Positions 1,599 through 23,991 of a DNA stretch of 24,000 nucleotides are shown in pieces (the stretch's first letter is position 1; each line of letters opens with the position of its first letter). Origin of the DNA: Bacillota bacterium (GTDB lineage: Bacteria > Bacillota > Dethiobacteria > DTU022); the NCBI GenBank assembly GCA_029782095.1, contig JAKOVL010000223.1, positions 34,637 through 58,636 of the forward strand, read 5' to 3'. The notes beneath the pieces are model-generated. The model was not told where the DNA came from. It made no database searches and was given only the letters and a program-made list of their open reading frames with translations. The translations under genes were made by a program, and so were the position numbers.

Positions 1599-1660
1599 GA
1601 GGCATCAGCTCCTTTAAATCTCAAATCCCTGTCCTCCTGTCTCAACTTCCCGCACCATTG

Positions 1661-1929
1661 CTCTCCCCTGCCAGGGGCTCTTAGAAGTTAGAGGTTAGAG
1701 GTCGGAGGTTAGAATAAAAACCTTCTTCTGGCTTTTGGCTTCCCTCAATCCGTCCAAAATCTGGCTTTCCGGTTGTTCCCCCTCCCCTGGTGGGAGAGGG
1801 CTGGGGAGAGGGGGAAAATTCCAAAGCAGGGCGATCCCTAAAACGATCACCCCCTCCTCGACCCTCCCCGTCAAGGGGGAGGAGTTTTTAACCCCAGTTC
1901 CCGGCATTTCTTCTGGTTCCTGGATTCTA
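1661..1929 (-). repeat. Composite mosaic repeat, copy L1, in minus orientation. Modules read on the minus strand: H heptads 1929-1906, B nested palindrome 1884-1778, short C 1770-1725, A heptads 1713-1681, degenerate D hairpin 1680-1661.
   Basis: The reverse complement of 1681-1713 is TCTAACCTCCGACCTCTAACCTCTAACTTCTAA, matching the A modules at 10944, 19286 and 23297. The reverse complement of 1778-1884 aligns arm for arm with the B modules at 19321, 21102 and 23078. No ORF with a protein signature is present. Confidence 0.8.
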
Positions 1930-2027
1930 TTTCCCGAAACCAGTACATAACCTGCTTCTCTGCTACTCCTGTTTTCTAAAAGTATAACATTCTTGACCCA
2001 AAACAAAATCCCTTTTCTAGTGAAATT

Positions 2028-3414: not shown

Positions 3415-3488
3415 TTGTACTACCCCCATACGTTAGTTGGATTTAGTAGTGCGGTTCTTATTCTCACTCAATACCTTTCTAGGGAACA

Positions 3489-3516
3489 CAGAATTCAGAA
3501 TCCAGAATACAGAATA
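3489..3516 (+). repeat. Perfect 7-nt tandem repeat, (N)CAGAAT x4, followed by an A8 run; H-type heptad module
   Basis: CAGAAT occurs at 3489, 3496, 3503 and 3510, an exact period of 7. It is preceded by TAGGGAAC, the same lead-in as the C/H modules (TAAGGGAACTAGAAGCCAGGA at 23201). Confidence 0.85.
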
Positions 3517-3528
3517 AAAAAAACATGT

Positions 3529-3974
3529 TTACTTTAGTGAAAGGCTTATTTTTGTTGCATAGGATTCCAAGAGTTTGCTCGTTTCTTCGAGCTTTAACAT
3601 CATATCTGTCGTGCTGCCGTAATGTAAATCGCCGGCTAAGATAAGATAATAGCGGCATTCTTCAGGGAACCCTGGGCTATGTTCAGGTAGTGTATTTTTT
3701 CTGCTTTACTTTTTTTCTTGAAACCTTCCGCTATATTGGCGGGGACGGAGACCGCTGCTCTGCGAAATTGAGCAGTCAAACAAAACTCTTCATTCCTGGG
3801 AAAACCACTGGTATACTGGTAAACATCCAAAACAATCGGTGTGCTTTTTGCCAGACTACCAGATCCTGAAAACTTTTTGCCGACCTGTTCATTTTCCTCA
3901 TTTCCCGCAAGCTGCAAAATTTCAAATCCGCTTTTTATCTTTTGTTCTGAATTCTGGGTTCCCTTAATCGGCAA
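3529..3974 (-). pseudogene. Four-helix-bundle protein gene (23S rRNA intervening-sequence protein family, PF05635-like) with a frameshift
   Basis: Frame 1 reads ...FPRNEEFCLTAQFRRAAVSVPANIAEGFKKKSKAEKIHYLNIAQGSL, then stops at 3636. A shift of one base at about 3662-3665 continues as EECRYYLILAGDLHYGSTTDMMLKLEETSKLLESYATKI, ending at TAA 3529-3531. That is the expected C-terminal helix of this family. A sequencing error cannot be excluded. Confidence 0.7.
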
Positions 3975-10873: not shown

Positions 10874-11004
10874 GAAGGGAATCCTGAATTCAGAAGGGTC
10901 GAAAAGTTTTAGAAGCGGGATAAGCAGTAAAGGGAGTTTTTATCTAACCTCCAACCTCTCACCTCTAACTTCTAAATTCGACCCTCTCCCGCCGGGAGAG
11001 AGGG
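10874..11004 (+). repeat. Composite mosaic repeat, copy L2, in plus orientation and antisense to both flanking genes. Modules: H/C-like 10874-10931, SD-like GGGAGTT plus T-run 10932-10941, A 10944-10975, D hairpin 10982-11004.
   Basis: CTAACCTCCAACCTCTCACCTCTAACTTCTAA differs at one base from the copy at 23297. It is followed by CGACCCTCTCCC-GCC-GGGAGAGAGGG. There is no B module. Confidence 0.8.
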
Positions 11005-17832: not shown

Positions 17833-18648
17833 ATGTATAGAACCATGTCCACAGAGCAATATTTTTTTTACATGATTGTGTTTCTTTGCGGTCTCTCCGT
17901 CGGCAGCTTTCTCAATGTACTGATTTACCGGCTGCCGCGGGGCCTTTCCCTGGTTAGGCCGCCCTCGCGCTGCCCCTCCTGCGGGCGGCGCCTCGGCGTC
18001 CTGGAGCTGATCCCGGTGTTGGGCTACCTCTTTATAAAAGGGCGCTGCCTGCAGTGCCGGCAGCCCGTCAGCCCCCGCTATCCCCTGGTGGAGCTGGCTA
18101 CAGCCTGCCTCTTTACCGCCGTATACCACCGCTTTGGTTTCAGCCTGGCCGGCCTGGGATACCTGCTGCTGCTGTCACTTTTGCTGGCCGTAGCGTTGAT
18201 CGACCTGGATCACCGCATCATCCCCAATTCCCTGGTCCTGGCAGGATTGATTGCCGGGCTGATCCTGCAGCTGCCCGCTGCGGGAGCACGCTGGTTCGAC
18301 CTGCCTTCCCGGCTGGCTCCCGCCATTCCATTGACCGATGCCCTGGCCGGGCTGACGCTGGGCGGCGGGCTGCTGCTCATAATCATCCTGGTCAGCCGCG
18401 GCGGCATGGGCGCGGGCGATATGAAGCTCATGGCCATGATCGGCTTTTATGTAGGCCTGCGCGGCACAGCGGTGGTCATGATGCTCGGTTTTATGCTGGG
18501 CGCCATAACCGGGTTAGTCCTCATCGCCGCGCGCCGCCTTACCCGCAAGGATGCGGTGCCTTTCGGCCCCTTCCTCTCCCTGGCGGCGCTGATCGAGATA
18601 TTCTGGGGCCCGCTGCTGTGGGACTGGTATATCAACCTGCTGCGCTGA
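17833..18648 (+). CDS. pilD: Prepilin peptidase / N-methyltransferase (A24 family)
   Basis: SFLNVLIYRLP, CPSCGRRL...CLQCRQ zinc motif, and catalytic Asp contexts LIDLDHRIIPN and GAGDMKLMAMIG. Confidence 0.93.
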   Translation: MYRTMSTEQYFFYMIVFLCGLSVGSFLNVLIYRLPRGLSLVRPPSRCPSCGRRLGVLELIPVLGYLFIKGRCLQCRQPVSPRYPLVELATACLFTAVYHRFGFSLAGLGYLLLLSLLLAVALIDLDHRIIPNSLVLAGLIAGLILQLPAAGARWFDLPSRLAPAIPLTDALAGLTLGGGLLLIIILVSRGGMGAGDMKLMAMIGFYVGLRGTAVVMMLGFMLGAITGLVLIAARRLTRKDAVPFGPFLSLAALIEIFWGPLLWDWYINLLR

Positions 18649-19940: not shown

Positions 19941-21086
19941 ATGAAAGCCGAACGAACAAGTGCAAAGGGCATGGCCCTAGTGCTAGTGCTCTTCTTCAGC
20001 ACTACCCTACTGTTGCTGGGCACGGTCTTGATCTCCTTTGCCTTTAACGAAATAATCATCTCCGGCTACCAGGAAGAAGAAGTGCGGCTTTACTATATCG
20101 CTGAAGCAGGCCTGGAAGCCGGCCTGGCCGCCTTGCAGAACGACTTTAACCGCCAGGTGCCCTTAAACGGCGCATTAAACGGCGGCTCCTTCCAGGTGAA
20201 TTTCACCGCCCCCGTCCCGGGAAAGCGCGGCATTAGCAGCGAAGGATCGCTGGGCCGCTATCGTAAAACTATCACCGCCACCGCCACCCTGGCGCTCCCG
20301 GAGGCCTGCGACGCCCTGTCTGCGGACAAAATTTTCCTGCGCAGCACGGCCATAAATGGCAGCGTCCATGTAAACGGGCCGCTAACAGCGGAGCAAGGGT
20401 CCAATTACATAAGCGGCGACCTCCATTATCCGCAGGATGCGCCGCCCCGGGAAACGGGCGAGGCTCACCTGGAAGTGGGCGGGGAAACTGTCGCCGCCGC
20501 ACCGCTGAAACTGCCCCGGATCAACCTGGAGCTGCTGGCCGGGCGGAGGCAGTTGACCATAGCCGGGGGCACCCTTAACCAGCCTCCAGCAGGCTACCCG
20601 GCCGCCAACCTCTTTCATGTGGCCGGTGATCTGGTCATAGCCCCCCAGGAGGAAGAAGTTTTTGATTTTTCCGGGATGCTTTACGTGGAAGGTGATTTAA
20701 TCATTAACCCCGCCGCCGGATCAACACTGCTCCTGGAGGGTATCCTCGCCGCAGAAGGCGATATCGCCATCAATTTGCAGGCCCCCATCAACGCCGACGA
20801 CCACTGGCGGGTCCTCCTCCTTCTGGCCGGCGATACGTTAGAAATAGTACCGGCGGACGAAGCGGCTTCATCTTTTGGAGGCAAACAGATTGCCTATGCC
20901 CTCAACACCATGGTGCTGCGGGGCGCAAGCTCAGAAGCGCCCCTGGAGCTGCACGGCGCATACCTGGCAAAAGAGTTTCACCTGGAAAACTGCGCCTTGG
21001 TTTATGAGGCGGCGCTGCTGCACGACTATATCAACGACCTGCCCGGGCTGGGCATTTTGAAGGTCGAGTGGGAGAGGGTAGAGTAG
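19941..21086 (+). CDS. PilX-N-terminal-domain / GspK-like large minor pilin
   Basis: MKAERTSAKG|MALVLVLFFSTTLLLLGTVLISFAFNE...LYYIAEAGLEAGLAAL has a hydrophobic N-terminus without Glu5, followed by the AEAG motif. 381 aa. It follows the PilV- and PilW-like genes. Confidence 0.7.
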   Translation: MKAERTSAKGMALVLVLFFSTTLLLLGTVLISFAFNEIIISGYQEEEVRLYYIAEAGLEAGLAALQNDFNRQVPLNGALNGGSFQVNFTAPVPGKRGISSEGSLGRYRKTITATATLALPEACDALSADKIFLRSTAINGSVHVNGPLTAEQGSNYISGDLHYPQDAPPRETGEAHLEVGGETVAAAPLKLPRINLELLAGRRQLTIAGGTLNQPPAGYPAANLFHVAGDLVIAPQEEEVFDFSGMLYVEGDLIINPAAGSTLLLEGILAAEGDIAINLQAPINADDHWRVLLLLAGDTLEIVPADEAASSFGGKQIAYALNTMVLRGASSEAPLELHGAYLAKEFHLENCALVYEAALLHDYINDLPGLGILKVEWERVE

Positions 21087-21101: not shown

Positions 21102-21301
21102 CCTTCCCCCCTGGTGGGGGAGGGCCAGGGTGGGGGGGATCTAAAGCCCAAACACCCCCTCTCCCCACCCCTCTCCCACCAGGGGAGAGGGAAAATAATG
21201 CGGAAATCCAGGCTTGGGCGCTCTAAAGGAAACTAGAAGTCAGAAACCAGAAGAAAAGATGAAAGAGGTTGTGACGGTGTACCCCCTTTTGAAAAGGGGG
21301 G
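21102..21301 (+). repeat. Composite mosaic repeat, copy L4. Modules: B 21102-21191, C/H-like heptads 21221-21257 (CTAGAAG TCAGAAA CCAGAAG), then a separate palindrome ACCCCCTTTTGAAAAGGGGGGT at 21281-21302.
   Basis: The B module is more than 90% identical by eye to the copies at 19321 and 23078. The heptads have an exact period of 7. Confidence 0.8.
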
Positions 21302-21331
21302 TCAGAGGTTTTTCGTCAAAGGAGGGTAGTA

Positions 21332-22408
21332 GTGGTGATTAAACTCTCGCAGCCACATCACATCTTTAAACCGATACAAACCAGGACAGCAGGCCGGAGG
21401 GCCTTTTCACCCATCGGCCTCGACCTGGGCAGCTCTCAAATCAAATTAATGCAGCTGCAGCGAAAAAATGGTGTCGTTTCCATTTATCGCTGCGCCTCTT
21501 TCCCCTCCCCTGCCGGCCGCGACGGTGACCTGGCCGATACAATTCAAAGGGCCCTTAAAGAAGCCGGCTGCCGCGGCCGCAGGGTTGTTGCGAGTCTGCA
21601 CGGCCAGGCGGCAATCCTGCGCCGCATCACCCTGCCGCCCCTCTCTCCGCCGGAAGTGTCCCGCGCTATGCGCTGGGAAGCGGAAAAGCAGCTGCCGCTT
21701 CCCGCAGAAGAATTTGTCTATGACTATGCCTTTTTAGAAAAACGCAATTTCCGGGGTAAAACAGTTCTTGATTTTATCCTGGCCGCGGTGCCGCGTTCTG
21801 TGGCGGAGAACTGCACGGAAGCCGTGCTTAAGGCCGGATATTTTCCCGAAGCCATAGAGGCGGCGCCACTGGCCCTGCGCCGCGCCGTGCACTGGTGTGG
21901 TTCCCATAACTTGCCTCCCTGCAACGGTACTGTGCTGGTTATCCATGTGGGCAGAGAGAACAGCGACCTGCTGGTGCTGCACCGGGGGCGCCACCGTTTC
22001 TATCGCCCCGTAAATGTGGGGATCAACCACTTCTGCAAGGAGGCGGCAAAGTCAAGTAAGCTATCCCCTGCGGAAGCGGAATGCTGCCTCTTCTCCACCG
22101 CACCGCACCAGCACCGCGGCCTGGGTGCAGCAGTGTCAAAGCTGGCCCGGCAGGCCGCCCGCTCCCTGGAATTTTATACCCTGGAGACAGAATTCCCGGA
22201 AAAACACTGCGAAGCGGTGCTGTTGTGCGGCGGTGGGGCCCTTATTCCCGGGCTGGAAGAGCGCCTCAGCAGCGAACTGGGTCTGCCGGTATCCCGCTTC
22301 AATCCCTTCGCTGCCTCCTGCTTCCCCGACGGGCCTGGCAACGGGTTCGAAAGCGGGCCCCTGTATAGTATCGCCCTGGGCCTGGCCCTGCGGGGGTGGG
22401 CCGGGTGA
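21332..22408 (+). CDS. pilM: Type IV pilus assembly protein PilM (actin-like ATPase fold)
   Basis: IGLDLGSSQIKLMQL (phosphate 1), LLCGGGALIPGLEERLSSELGLPV, and the position before pilN. GTG start with a GGAGGG SD. Confidence 0.85.
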   Translation: MVIKLSQPHHIFKPIQTRTAGRRAFSPIGLDLGSSQIKLMQLQRKNGVVSIYRCASFPSPAGRDGDLADTIQRALKEAGCRGRRVVASLHGQAAILRRITLPPLSPPEVSRAMRWEAEKQLPLPAEEFVYDYAFLEKRNFRGKTVLDFILAAVPRSVAENCTEAVLKAGYFPEAIEAAPLALRRAVHWCGSHNLPPCNGTVLVIHVGRENSDLLVLHRGRHRFYRPVNVGINHFCKEAAKSSKLSPAEAECCLFSTAPHQHRGLGAAVSKLARQAARSLEFYTLETEFPEKHCEAVLLCGGGALIPGLEERLSSELGLPVSRFNPFAASCFPDGPGNGFESGPLYSIALGLALRGWAG

Positions 22409-22953
22409 AAACAGAGATAGATCTGCGCCCCCGGGAGTACATGCTAGCCTGGTATAAACGGCGCCGCCGCCCGCTCCTGGTGCTTATCGCCGTTATTGCC
22501 GCTGCAAGCATACTGCTCTGCACCGCTCTGTGCGAGAAACACCTTGAGCGCAGCGCCGCGGCCAACAGGAGGCTGCGCCAGGCCAACGCACTTCTGGCTG
22601 AAGAGGCGGCGCCCCTGATGCGGCTGGAAGCAGACATCGCCATTCTCAAAGAAAAAGCGGCACTGGAGGAAGCCCTGCGCCGGCAGCAAATCCCCTGGAG
22701 CGATATCCTGCGCCGCGCGGAGGCTGCTCTGCCGGAAGGTTTATACCTCTCATCGTTCAGTGCCGGCGGGCAAGGCCGTCTCACCATAACCGGCCGCGGC
22801 CAGGCCATGCCGCAAGTGGCTTCCTTCAGCCAGGCCTTAAGCGCCCTGGGCTATTTCAGCAGCGTCACTGTCAGCCGCATCGAACGGGAGGCGGAAGGCA
22901 GTTACCGCTTTGTGTTCGAGGTTGAATTGATGATAGCAGGCGGGGATGATTGA
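22396..22953 (+). CDS. pilN: PilN-like pilus assembly protein
   Basis: IDLRPREY plus a basic stretch, a single TM segment, a coiled coil and a C-terminal ferredoxin-like region. The alternative start GTG 22405 overlaps the pilM stop (GTGA). Confidence 0.75.
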   Translation: MGRVKTEIDLRPREYMLAWYKRRRRPLLVLIAVIAAASILLCTALCEKHLERSAAANRRLRQANALLAEEAAPLMRLEADIAILKEKAALEEALRRQQIPWSDILRRAEAALPEGLYLSSFSAGGQGRLTITGRGQAMPQVASFSQALSALGYFSSVTVSRIEREAEGSYRFVFEVELMIAGGDD

Positions 22954-23015
22954 GGCAGGAAACAGGCGCGGTGTGCAACCGGCTTGGGAAGGAATAAAGG
23001 AATTCAAAAATCAAT

Positions 23016-23357
23016 AAGCCAGAAGCCGGAATACGGAAACCAGAGGTAAGCAGTTTAAAGTCGGGGATCCGAAAGTCCCCTCCCCCCTGGTGGGGGAGGG
23101 TTAGGGTGGGGGGGATCATGCCCAAACGCCCCCTCTCCCCGACCCTCTCCCACCAGGGGAGAGGGAGAATAAAGCGGGCAAAGCCAACCTTTATGCGGCT
23201 TAAGGGAACTAGAAGCCAGGAAAAGGTTTTTAAGATGAGATAAACAGCGCCGACAACTATAGATGGCAGAAGCAAAGGAATAAGGAGGTTTTTTTTCTAA
23301 CCTCCAACCTCTTACCTCTAACTTCTAAAATCGACCCTCTCCCACCAGGGGAGAGGG
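23016..23357 (+). repeat. Composite mosaic repeat, copy L5, with the full architecture. Modules: H 23016-23050, B 23078-23165, C 23197-23281, orphan SD plus T-run 23282-23296, A 23297-23328, D 23335-23357.
   Basis: Every module recurs elsewhere in the window (see the other repeat features). P1 CCCTCCCCC/GGGGGAGGG, P2 CCCTCTCCC/GGGAGAGGG and the D hairpin are each perfect 9-bp palindromic stems. Confidence 0.85.
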
Positions 23358-23385
23358 AGAAAAAGACTGGGAATGAGCGGTTAAA

Positions 23386-23991
23386 ATGAAATTAGCGAGT
23401 AAATTGAACTTGAGCAAACGGGAAGCGCTGCTGCTGCTGGCGGCGATCTTGCTGGCCTTCTCCCTGGCCGGCTGGCGCTGCCTTGTGGCTCCCCTGCTGC
23501 ATACCGCCTCAGAGCTGCGCCTTGAGCGGGAATCCCTGCTGCAAGAACAAAAACAGCTGCAAGGGCGGCTGCAGCGCAAAGGCGACCTCTTCGTCGCTGC
23601 CGAGCGGTGGCAGGACCGCGCGGCAGAGCTGCATAGGGCCCTCCCCGCCCCGGAAGATCTGCCGAAAGTGCTGGAAAATCTGGAAGCACTGCTCCATCAA
23701 TCTCCAGTTATAGTTCATACACTCCAAGCCGCAGAGCCGGAAACAGAAGAAAACTATGCCGCCCTGCCGCTGCAGCTGCGTGTTTCCGGGGAGCCGGCCG
23801 CCCTGCTGGATTTGCTGGAGCAGCTGGAGCAGTTCGAATCCCTGCTGTTGGTGGATCAGCTCGGCTGGTCCCGTGAAAGTGAAACCGGGGCTTCGCTGGA
23901 GCTATCTTTCCGTTTAATCTTGCATCCATCTTCCCAGCCGGCTGGCAGCTATCCCGCTGAGGAAGGCCAAAAAAAAGACTTGGCGGACTAA
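23386..23991 (+). CDS. pilO: PilO-like pilus assembly protein
   Basis: N-terminal TM segment (LLLLAAILLAFSLAG), coiled coil (ELRLERESLLQEQKQLQGRL), then LPAPEDLPKVLENLEALL...LPLQLRVSGEPAALLDLLEQLEQ. This layout is typical of PilO. The SD is weak. Confidence 0.75.
   Translation: MKLASKLNLSKREALLLLAAILLAFSLAGWRCLVAPLLHTASELRLERESLLQEQKQLQGRLQRKGDLFVAAERWQDRAAELHRALPAPEDLPKVLENLEALLHQSPVIVHTLQAAEPETEENYAALPLQLRVSGEPAALLDLLEQLEQFESLLLVDQLGWSRESETGASLELSFRLILHPSSQPAGSYPAEEGQKKDLAD

Follow-up and report, generated by a model that had tools for sequence, protein, structure and literature searches.

Why are pilN and pilO, two genes that normally abut, separated by 432 nt in a type IV pilus cluster of a Bacillota bacterium? 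The locus lies in a 24,000-nt stretch (the window, in whose numbering all positions are given) from a spore-forming relative of Dethiobacter, and an earlier note on this sequence had described the spacer as a non-coding composite of repeat modules. The spacer is indeed 432 nt long and non-coding, pilN ending at 22953 and pilO beginning at 23386, and the usual adjacency of the two genes was borne out in one related species (L138), in which the gap is 2 nt. The spacer probably consists of selfish intergenic repeats, non-coding and of two unrelated kinds, that have piled up and are passively carried on the pil transcript. It is most aptly classed as a fusion of BoxC/TM_ECO elements, here in a new phylum, with heptad-armed cassettes that have no gene. 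The features concerned are as follows.

22396-22953: pilN (PF05137)
22954-23385, plus strand: pilN-pilO spacer, a mosaic of repeat units (432 nt)
23016-23050, plus strand: H, purine-rich heptad array AAGCCAG AAGCCGG AATACGG AAACCAG AGGTAAG, read directly
23078-23112, plus strand: left arm of B, a BoxC/TM_ECO type A unit, CCCTCCCCC-CTGGT-GGGGGAGGG-TTA-GGGTGGGGG (pattern match with one relaxed position)
23131-23165, minus strand: right arm of B, a BoxC/TM_ECO unit in the B-type position, CCCTCTCCC-CTGGT-GGGAGAGGG-TCG-GGGAGAGGG (exact pattern match)
23140-23169, plus strand: copy 1 of an exact 30-nt direct repeat, CGACCCTCTCCCACCAGGGGAGAGGGAGAA; copy 2 is at 23332-23361 and the pair brackets C-A
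23170-23288, plus strand: C, with a left end ...TTAAGGGAAC plus the heptads TAGAAGC CAGGAAA, a core and an orphan Shine-Dalgarno (SD) site, from an alignment of eight copies and the end of the gene-bearing cassette described below
23289-23328, plus strand: a T8 run followed by A, an array of 4.7 TCTAACC-type heptads, from Tandem Repeats Finder (TRF)
23335-23357, plus strand: D, the hairpin CCCTCTCCC-ACCAG-GGGAGAGGG, a truncated BoxC unit in the B position
23386-23991: pilO (PF04350/PF10741)

The positions previously given for the modules of the spacer were all confirmed, as were the 28 nt between the end of D and the pilO ATG. H was extended to 23050 and C to approximately 23170-23288, and the run read as T9 is a T8 run (23289-23296) directly after the orphan SD site TAAGGAGG (23281-23288). 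The division into five modules was an over-split: H and C's left end represent a single motif, D is one half of B, truncated, and the SD site, the T-run and A behave as one block. Neither terminal inverted repeats nor target-site duplications had been seen by eye, and no direct repeat had been noted; the exact 30-nt direct repeat is a correction on the last point, and the lack of a target-site duplication holds at the L4 site described below. The repeat is itself BoxC hairpin sequence, and the C-A block that it encloses spans 23170-23331.

BoxC elements, also called PIT (potential intrastrand triplex) or TM_ECO (G/C-rich triplex motif) elements, are known from E. coli and other Proteobacteria, and their published pattern consists of CCCTCNCCC, 3-6 nt, GGGNGAGGG, 3 nt and GGGNGAGGG, with one mismatched triplet allowed. 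Exact matches to this pattern were obtained at 21157-21191 and 23131-23165 (minus strand), with none expected by chance, and a third match, with one relaxed position, at 23078-23112. The spacer was also searched by BLAST against plasmid and E. coli records, and B was matched over its entire length. The blastn comparison of B with E. coli gave 77-79% identity over 90-95 nt, with E values down to 1e-11, in 3931 of 5426 complete genomes. The matches include the K-12 intergenic pair between hrpB and mrcB, which is listed in Table 1 of PMC4666352. A search of phage records gave no match. On the evidence of sequence, B is an inverted BoxC/PIT/TM_ECO pair and D is a truncated single unit of the same family. 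The repeat family had been regarded as unrecognised; for B and D this view is overturned, on the earlier note's own terms, by the pattern and BLAST matches to a described family.

The correspondence extends in part to the arrangement of the pair. In E. coli MG1655, Holder et al. (2015; PMC4666352) described 23 TM_ECO copies, including five inverted pairs of a type A and a type B unit; the second loop of type A is TTA, and that of type B is mostly CCG, with TCG in two listed copies. The left unit of B was assigned to type A by its TTA second loop, and the pair in the spacer joins a TTA-loop unit to a B-position unit, as do all five inverted E. coli pairs. D is likewise a unit in the B-type position, ending after the second loop (TCG), where the A array joins. 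The family is recognisable here by its three-block pattern, by the inversion of a TTA-loop unit against a differently looped one, by its intergenic placement and AGAA tail, by 77-79% identity over the whole pair, and by strain-to-strain deletions that leave a hairpin.

There are also differences. The published census covered 3610 copies in 262 proteobacterial genomes (PMC4666352), whereas the host here, a relative of Dethiobacter, is a spore-former of the Bacillota. The blocks are of the variant CCCTCCCCC / GGGGGAGGG / GGGTGGGGG, the second loop in the B position is TCG or GTG instead of the mostly CCG of E. coli type B, and truncated single-hairpin forms such as D are common. The units are fused to heptad arrays, whereas copies on Azospirillum and Vitreoscilla plasmids, which share this architecture down to the CGA loop and AGAA tail, are free of neighbouring heptads. 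At the level of similarity of the K-12 and S51 matches, a genome has between 0 and 4 copies; K-12 has one pair, in hrpB-mrcB, and E. coli S51 has two complete inverted BoxC pairs in tandem in its phnD-phnE spacer (L151 1204-1418).

The form of a BoxC unit, a C-block, a loop, a G-block, a loop and a second G-block, would allow hairpins or cruciforms and, as single-stranded DNA, an intrastrand triplex or a G-quadruplex. Relative to E. coli, the three blocks co-vary, T:A.A having become C:G.G, and this three-way co-variation, together with the symmetry of the blocks, is the feature that might be relevant to a triplex.

The modules recur in the window, as previously claimed, and far above chance. 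The copy in the pilN-pilO spacer is referred to as L5 and the remaining copies as L1 to L4.

1649-1936, minus strand: L1, consisting of H, a BoxC pair, a short C, A and a degenerate hairpin, between a tsaD-like gene and a 2Fe-2S gene
10874-11004, plus strand: L2, consisting of a short C, A and D, between a zinc-ribbon gene and spoIIIAA
19163-19411, plus strand: L3, consisting of C, A and a BoxC pair with the first bases of its left unit missing, located after a pilin-like gene
21102-21279, plus strand: L4, consisting of a BoxC pair (21102-21191) and the left end of C in truncated form, upstream of pilM

The 23-nt hairpin has eight copies at ≤3 mismatches (none expected in 100 shuffles), all of them intergenic and on both strands, including 21169, 23143 and 23335 on the plus strand and 21102 and 23078 on the minus strand. 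B has three direct copies at 76-92% identity and one inverted copy, and the 33-nt A array has four copies, with none expected in shuffles. The second loops of the left and right units are TTA and TCG in L5, CCA and GTG in L4, and CTA and GGG in L3, compared with TTA and CCG in the E. coli definition; the A+B pair arrangement is maintained in all three, although the loop triplets depart from that definition. The hairpins fall into two subtypes tied to orientation. When the eight copies were aligned, 93.7% of cells could pair, with one compensatory pair; covariation as a sign of RNA-level selection on the hairpin was rejected, as this pair probably reflects a single event and is too little. The loci proposed earlier were all recovered as sites of recurrence, but the start of L3 was moved to approximately 19163 and the end of L4 to approximately 21279, and what had been called H in L4 proved on alignment to belong to C, of which it is the truncated left end. 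In total, 5.1% of the window consists of the elements, in line with the earlier figure of about 5-6%, or 7.1% when the gene-bearing cassette described below is counted.

The units do not appear to encode a product. A search against Pfam using the open reading frames (ORFs) called mechanically across the repeats gave no match, and the C-A and H units of the spacer contain no ORF by the same check. In L1 and L5 the ORFs are read from opposite strands of the element and so cannot be a single conserved product. The window has a G+C content of 57% and contains the spoIIIA operon, efp, aroQ/aroK/aroE and the type IV pilus cluster, comprising pilB, a prepilin peptidase gene, pilin genes, pilM, pilN and pilO. 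Homologues of the EF-P protein place the host near Dethiobacter and metagenome-assembled genomes of the Dethiobacteria.

The second kind of repeat is built on heptads. A was reported by TRF as a tandem repeat of period 7 and 4.7 copies in all four of its places, and period-7 arrays of 4.7 copies were found at 1681, 3484, 10943, 19285 and 23296. H and the left end of C have in common the motif AAGGGAAC followed by NNCAGAA-type heptads. In the minimum-energy fold, the tail of H (AGAGGTAAG) is paired to the CTTACCTCT stretch of A (duplex of H with A in L5, z = -2.45), and the whole spacer folded as RNA has a predicted energy of -174.8 kcal/mol (z = -5.2). The SD-like motif of C is present in five of the seven copies. 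The A block with its GGAAGGTTT leader is present in another metagenome-assembled genome (MAG) of the Bacillota.

H and A belong to a long-known class, the heptanucleotide tandem repeats. Like the cyanobacterial short tandemly repeated repetitive (STRR) sequences, the TAACTGA repeats of the Beggiatoaceae (PMC4679880) and the repeats of Geobacter metallireducens (PMC2700814), they have a period of 7 and about 4-5 copies, and lie between genes, often upstream of start codons. Heptanucleotide tandem repeats are also the subject of the LSSR of Mrazek et al., as these are cited in PMC4679880. The G. metallireducens elements contain four and five heptads, and their class-3 consensus, MTYCTGA (PMC2700814), is complementary to the NNCAGAA heptads seen in H and at the left end of C. 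The arrays of the window differ in that they lie inside a larger copied unit at a fixed copy number of 4.7, and in that they are tied to a four-helix-bundle cassette, a link unmentioned in PMC4679880 and PMC2700814. Heptad-plus-hairpin mosaics may be common in Clostridia: in six gut or rumen Clostridia MAGs (L005, L074, L091, L081, L096 and L110), TCTAACC-type arrays were seen beside G-rich or GC-rich hairpin motifs, such as GAAGGGGTTAGGGGGTTGGGG, and other local repeats.

The four-helix-bundle cassette is the following feature.

3481-3970, minus strand: heptad-armed cassette with a four-helix-bundle gene (PF05635/TIGR02436, '23S rRNA IVS protein', where IVS stands for intervening sequence)

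It consists of a 5' arm (3970-3945), a 5' untranslated region (UTR) with an SD site, an ORF (3892-3529), a T8 run (3523-3516) and a 3' arm (3515-3481). The 5' arm is purine-rich, the 3' arm is pyrimidine-rich and complementary to it, and the two are predicted to pair at -29.5 kcal/mol (z = -5.6). A stretch at 3489-3516 had been described as H standing alone; it is one arm of this inverted pair, whose partner lies at 3945-3970 on the other side of the PF05635 gene. This is the only place in the window with a PF05635/TIGR02436 gene between complementary arms. The ORF at 3529-3892 (minus strand) is readable only across three frames (MNRSAKSFQDLVVWQKAHRL / VLDVYQYTSGFPRNEEF...AQGSL / EECRYYLILAGDLHYG...SLSLK*), and the gene is either a pseudogene with two 1-nt deletions or affected by sequencing errors.

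C-A and this cassette have the same layout at their ends, with T8 followed by approximately 4.7 heptads. The left end of every C unit also aligns with the 5' end of the cassette, TTTTGCCGATTAAGGGAACCCAGAATTCAGAA, over 15-37 nt (local alignment z = 2.0-7.2). The simplest reading of C-A is that it is a gene-less derivative of a heptad-armed cassette, consisting of the left arm, the UTR with a relic SD site, the T8 run and the right arm. Such a derivation would explain the orphan SD site and the T-run, which would be left over after loss of the ORF, and H would be a solo arm of the same kind of cassette.

Intervening sequences of 23S rRNA that carry an S23p/IVP ORF occur in Leptospira and Coxiella. 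The cassette resembles them in having a PF05635 gene within inverted repeats and a long RNA closing stem (the predicted -29.5 kcal/mol), and differs in lying between protein-coding genes and in having heptad arrays as arms; the C-A units differ further in having neither a gene nor complementary arms. An rRNA-IVS-like closing stem was considered for C-A and rejected, as its duplex energies are at the level of shuffles; such a stem holds for the gene-bearing cassette and, weakly, for H with A in L5. C-A also resembles a miniature inverted-repeat transposable element (MITE), in that short gene-less copies share an end with a gene-bearing unit, are multicopy and show presence/absence polymorphism. 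It differs from a MITE in the lack of a transposase, of a clear terminal inverted repeat and of a target-site duplication, and in that the 30-nt repeat bracketing it is BoxC hairpin. No target-site duplication was found on comparison of the filled and empty L4 sites, and the C-A arms are not significantly complementary (C left end with A, z = +1.1 to -1.1, no better than shuffles).

One genome per species was scanned with the 22-nt core of A, which gave more than 116 loci in many phyla. On a first pass, only 4 of 116 heptad loci had an adjacent four-helix-bundle gene and most arrays were gene-less. Iterative hidden Markov model searches identified six four-helix-bundle genes in the scanned loci (L034, L048, L051, L053, L058 and L071), and each of the six has heptad arrays on its flanks, the upstream one purine-rich and the downstream one complementary, the heptads being specific to the lineage. 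To these were added ten plasmid genes (L140-L149), picked without regard to heptads, from Cyanobacteria, Riemerella, Gemmatirosa and Azospirillum (the hosts being Nostoc, Riemerella, Pseudanabaena, Geminocystis, Stanieria, Picosynechococcus, Gemmatirosa, Leptolyngbya and Azospirillum), for a total of 16 genes in six phyla. By eye, seven of the ten plasmid genes had the inverted architecture, two had arrays in direct orientation and one had an array on a single side. A strict regular expression for inverted arrays under-counted, and a lag-7 identity detector was used in its place. Lag-7 identity was at least 0.62 on one or both flanks of 14 of the 16 genes (95th percentile of the control, 0.52), and the arm duplex reached z <= -3.8 in nine of the 16. 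From the side of the arrays, a lag-7 detector placed a purine-rich partner array on the upstream side of 16 of the 116 loci and on the downstream side of 2; the association of heptads with the gene is clear only when starting from the genes, not from the arrays. The heptad sequence around the genes varies from locus to locus, and in other phyla it is common for an array to run right up to a start codon.

Some of these cassettes lie within operons of other functions. Two were seen inside CRISPR-Cas operons, between cas6 and cas4 in Pseudanabaena (L143 383-742) and between cas10 and cmr3 in Picosynechococcus (L146 377-733), and another (L141) between two ribonucleotide reductase genes. The Pseudanabaena arrays have the same orientation on both sides, approximately 15 copies of AAAAGCT and 9 of AAAAGCC, and those of Gemmatirosa (L147) are direct CTCCTGC arrays.

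Four-helix-bundle genes might be the cargo of pan-bacterial cassettes with complementary heptad-array ends, which would sit between operon genes like intervening sequences of mRNA. The scattered heptad repeats, namely C-A, H and perhaps the STRR, TAACTGA and Geobacter heptads, would then be gene-less footprints of such cassettes, fused in this genome to BoxC units. We advance this only tentatively, and judge it possible but somewhat less probable than its contrary. No paper tying heptanucleotide repeats to the four-helix-bundle family was found in a literature search.

Comparison with relatives revealed gain and loss of whole modules. Contigs L121 and L122 come from a strain approximately 90% identical to the window and are syntenic with it. 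L4 (approximately 178 nt) is absent at the orthologous site in L121, with no target-site duplication, and L3 has a full BoxC pair in the window and a single hairpin in L121, a 58-nt difference. A further unit, made of C, A and half of B, was found after pilC. In E. coli, local genomic instability has been described at these elements, in which deletions in the palindromic sites still leave a hairpin (PMC4666352). BoxC elements are hot spots of small deletions there, plausibly via replication slippage, and slippage or recombination between the repeated hairpins could generate the variants seen here.

In three related Bacillota species, the hairpin was not found in 20 kb each, and the hairpin, B, C and A-block modules are absent. 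One of these sequences, L136, has plain heptad arrays (ATTCTGA, AGGATTC and GAATTCT) at the sites of L2, the gene-bearing cassette and L1 (11302-11335; 18327-18372 with 18540-18565; 20057-20085). A decayed cassette lies at the second site, where a remnant of the C-terminus of the four-helix bundle remains between the middle pair of arrays; L134 has none. The presence of plain arrays at the same sites in the more distant L136 implies that the BoxC units and the C-A block are younger than the heptad arrays.

In L121 and L122 the spacer matches that of the window at 100% identity, and it falls within an identical block of 1.4 kb in an alignment that is mosaic overall. In window positions 22080-23480, identity is 99-100% over this block, with flanks at 80-90%, and it is again 99-100% from approximately 23780. 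The mosaic suggests that strains recombined recently or that metagenome contigs are chimeric, and the identity of the spacer was rejected as a sign of selection or recent transfer, as it falls within the block. Logan short-read contigs end inside the repeats, which is typical of multi-copy sequence. One such contig (L001 1-110, from SRR13522559) runs directly from the BoxC pair into the pilO leader, so that C-A and one of the two 30-nt repeat copies are missing; this junction is either a real allele lacking C-A or an assembly collapse at k = 31.

Several observations weigh against the reading of the spacer as passive repeats and cassette derivatives. Homology of C-A to the cassette can be demonstrated over some 20-37 nt of the left end only, and elsewhere, in the core and on the right, the likeness is one of layout. 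The arms of C-A pair no better than shuffled sequences, whereas those of complete cassettes do pair. Neither a target-site duplication nor a clean empty site marks out an insertion mechanism, and the difference at L4 could be a deletion in L121. The copy counts, orientations and placements cover approximately 30 kb of the host species, and the identity of the spacer in L121 and L122, lying within the 1.4-kb block, is uninformative. Finally, six of the seven units are in the same direction as the flanking genes (one-sided binomial p = 0.06, not significant), L2 being opposite to both of its neighbours; this co-orientation, and the location of D 28 nt before pilO, might point to selection acting on the RNA.

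A rival reading takes the spacer as a cis-regulatory RNA for pilO, in which the perfect SD site UAAGGAGGU would be sequestered by the CCUCC heptads, as a mimic of the anti-SD tail of 16S rRNA, and, with D, would tune pilO translation or act as a ribosome decoy or standby site. In support of this, a GGAGGUU:AACCUCC hairpin is predicted in the minimum-energy fold, the SD-like motif is retained in five of seven copies, the units are mostly co-directional with their flanking genes, and heptad arrays of other phyla often end at a start codon, as is reported for the TAACTGA repeats. However, the same block occurs in unrelated contexts (tsaD/2Fe-2S, spoIIIAA and after pilC) and is antisense in L2, no start codon follows the orphan SD site, and the changes in the predicted hairpin are uncompensated (GGGAGTT in L2, GAAGGTT in L1 and AACATCC in L121). 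The presence of a unit also differs between strains that are approximately 90% identical. A scan of the window against Rfam gave no match at gathering thresholds, and a permissive scan gave only sub-threshold, generic microRNA-hairpin look-alikes, on B only. A cis-regulatory role is unlikely on this balance. Signals acting on transcription within the operon are a good deal more doubtful. In that scheme, the hairpins would be terminators or attenuators, or C a promoter, and would set the ratio of pilMN to pilOC. The stems are predicted to be very stable, and D on the minus strand, followed by TCGATTTTAG, is terminator-like and in L2 faces the upstream gene. The terminator-like orientation is antisense in L5 and in most copies, though, with no T-run on the coding strand after the hairpins; a promoter and terminator scan of the spacer detected neither a sigma-70-like promoter nor a plus-strand terminator, and PIT elements had neither promoter nor terminator activity in E. 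coli (PMC4666352). No evidence for a dedicated regulatory role of the spacer was found.

The earlier note had likened the shuffled modules to the bacterial interspersed mosaic elements (BIMEs) of enterobacteria. The likeness stands as one of style, with alternating palindromes interleaved with short accessory motifs, variation from site to site and a position between operon genes; the hairpin sequence is that of BoxC and unrelated to the repetitive extragenic palindromic (REP) sequences of BIMEs, so that only the grammar is alike. A true REP/BIME system, in which the 23-nt hairpins would be REPs mobilised by a REP-associated tyrosine transposase (RAYT, IS200/IS605-like TnpA) encoded elsewhere, would fit the locally dense, intergenic G/C palindromes in alternating orientation with their accessory motifs, and the orientation-tied hairpin subtypes resemble the Y and Z units of BIMEs. 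Against it, the hairpins are BoxC/TM_ECO by sequence, and BoxC is a family separate from REP in enterobacteria. No RAYT gene was found in the 24-kb window or 5 kb beyond, and no transposase or integrase remnants surround the TM_ECO sites of E. coli (PMC4666352), which makes such a system improbable. An artefact, with the spacer a chimera or collapsed repeat of metagenome assembly, could be suspected from the Logan contigs that break at the repeats, from the direct junction of B to the pilO leader in L001 and from the mosaic of identity between the window and L121. It is hardly credible, given that three independent assemblies (the window, ERZ795060 and Ga0116166) agree exactly over all 432 nt of the spacer.

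If the passive pile-up of BoxC units and cassette derivatives is accepted, the spacer would have wedged apart two normally coupled genes. Its effects on the cell would then be only incidental, namely the loss of translational coupling between pilN and pilO, and very stable stem-loops in the mRNA, which might be sites for RNase III or barriers to exonucleases and decay.

An apparently unknown repeat family is hereby moved into known territory, and the range of BoxC/TM_ECO, previously the Proteobacteria, now takes in a Gram-positive spore-former, at an identity of nearly 80%. This extension to the Bacillota sharpens the question of how BoxC elements, which lack a transposase, spread between phyla, and the locus offers a natural example of BoxC instability inside an essential-looking operon. 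The repeat mosaic between pilN and pilO is mostly ordinary, save for a link between heptads and four-helix-bundle genes that is possibly undescribed, and the heptad-arm architecture of these genes is a more interesting lead than the spacer itself. If it were true genome-wide, it would give several puzzling families of heptanucleotide repeats a common origin, and a very large family of functionally uncharacterised proteins a testable role, in binding or processing its own heptad arms.

Two minor observations concern other hairpins in the window. On the minus strand, D at 10982-11004 and at 23335-23357 is followed by TCGAATTTAG or TCGATTTTAG and has a terminator-like score; the copy in L2 faces the upstream zinc-ribbon gene and could be a terminator of that gene. 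A separate, small type of hairpin, ACCCCC-TTTTGAAA-AGGGGGGT / GTCCCC...GGGGAT, recurs a short way upstream of three genes, namely pilM, pilC and the 2Fe-2S gene. It was seen at 21283-21304 in the window, at approximately 9951-9975 in L121, at approximately 818-845 and 870-900 in L001, and at 20190-20240 in L136, and is conserved in the related strain that lacks L4.

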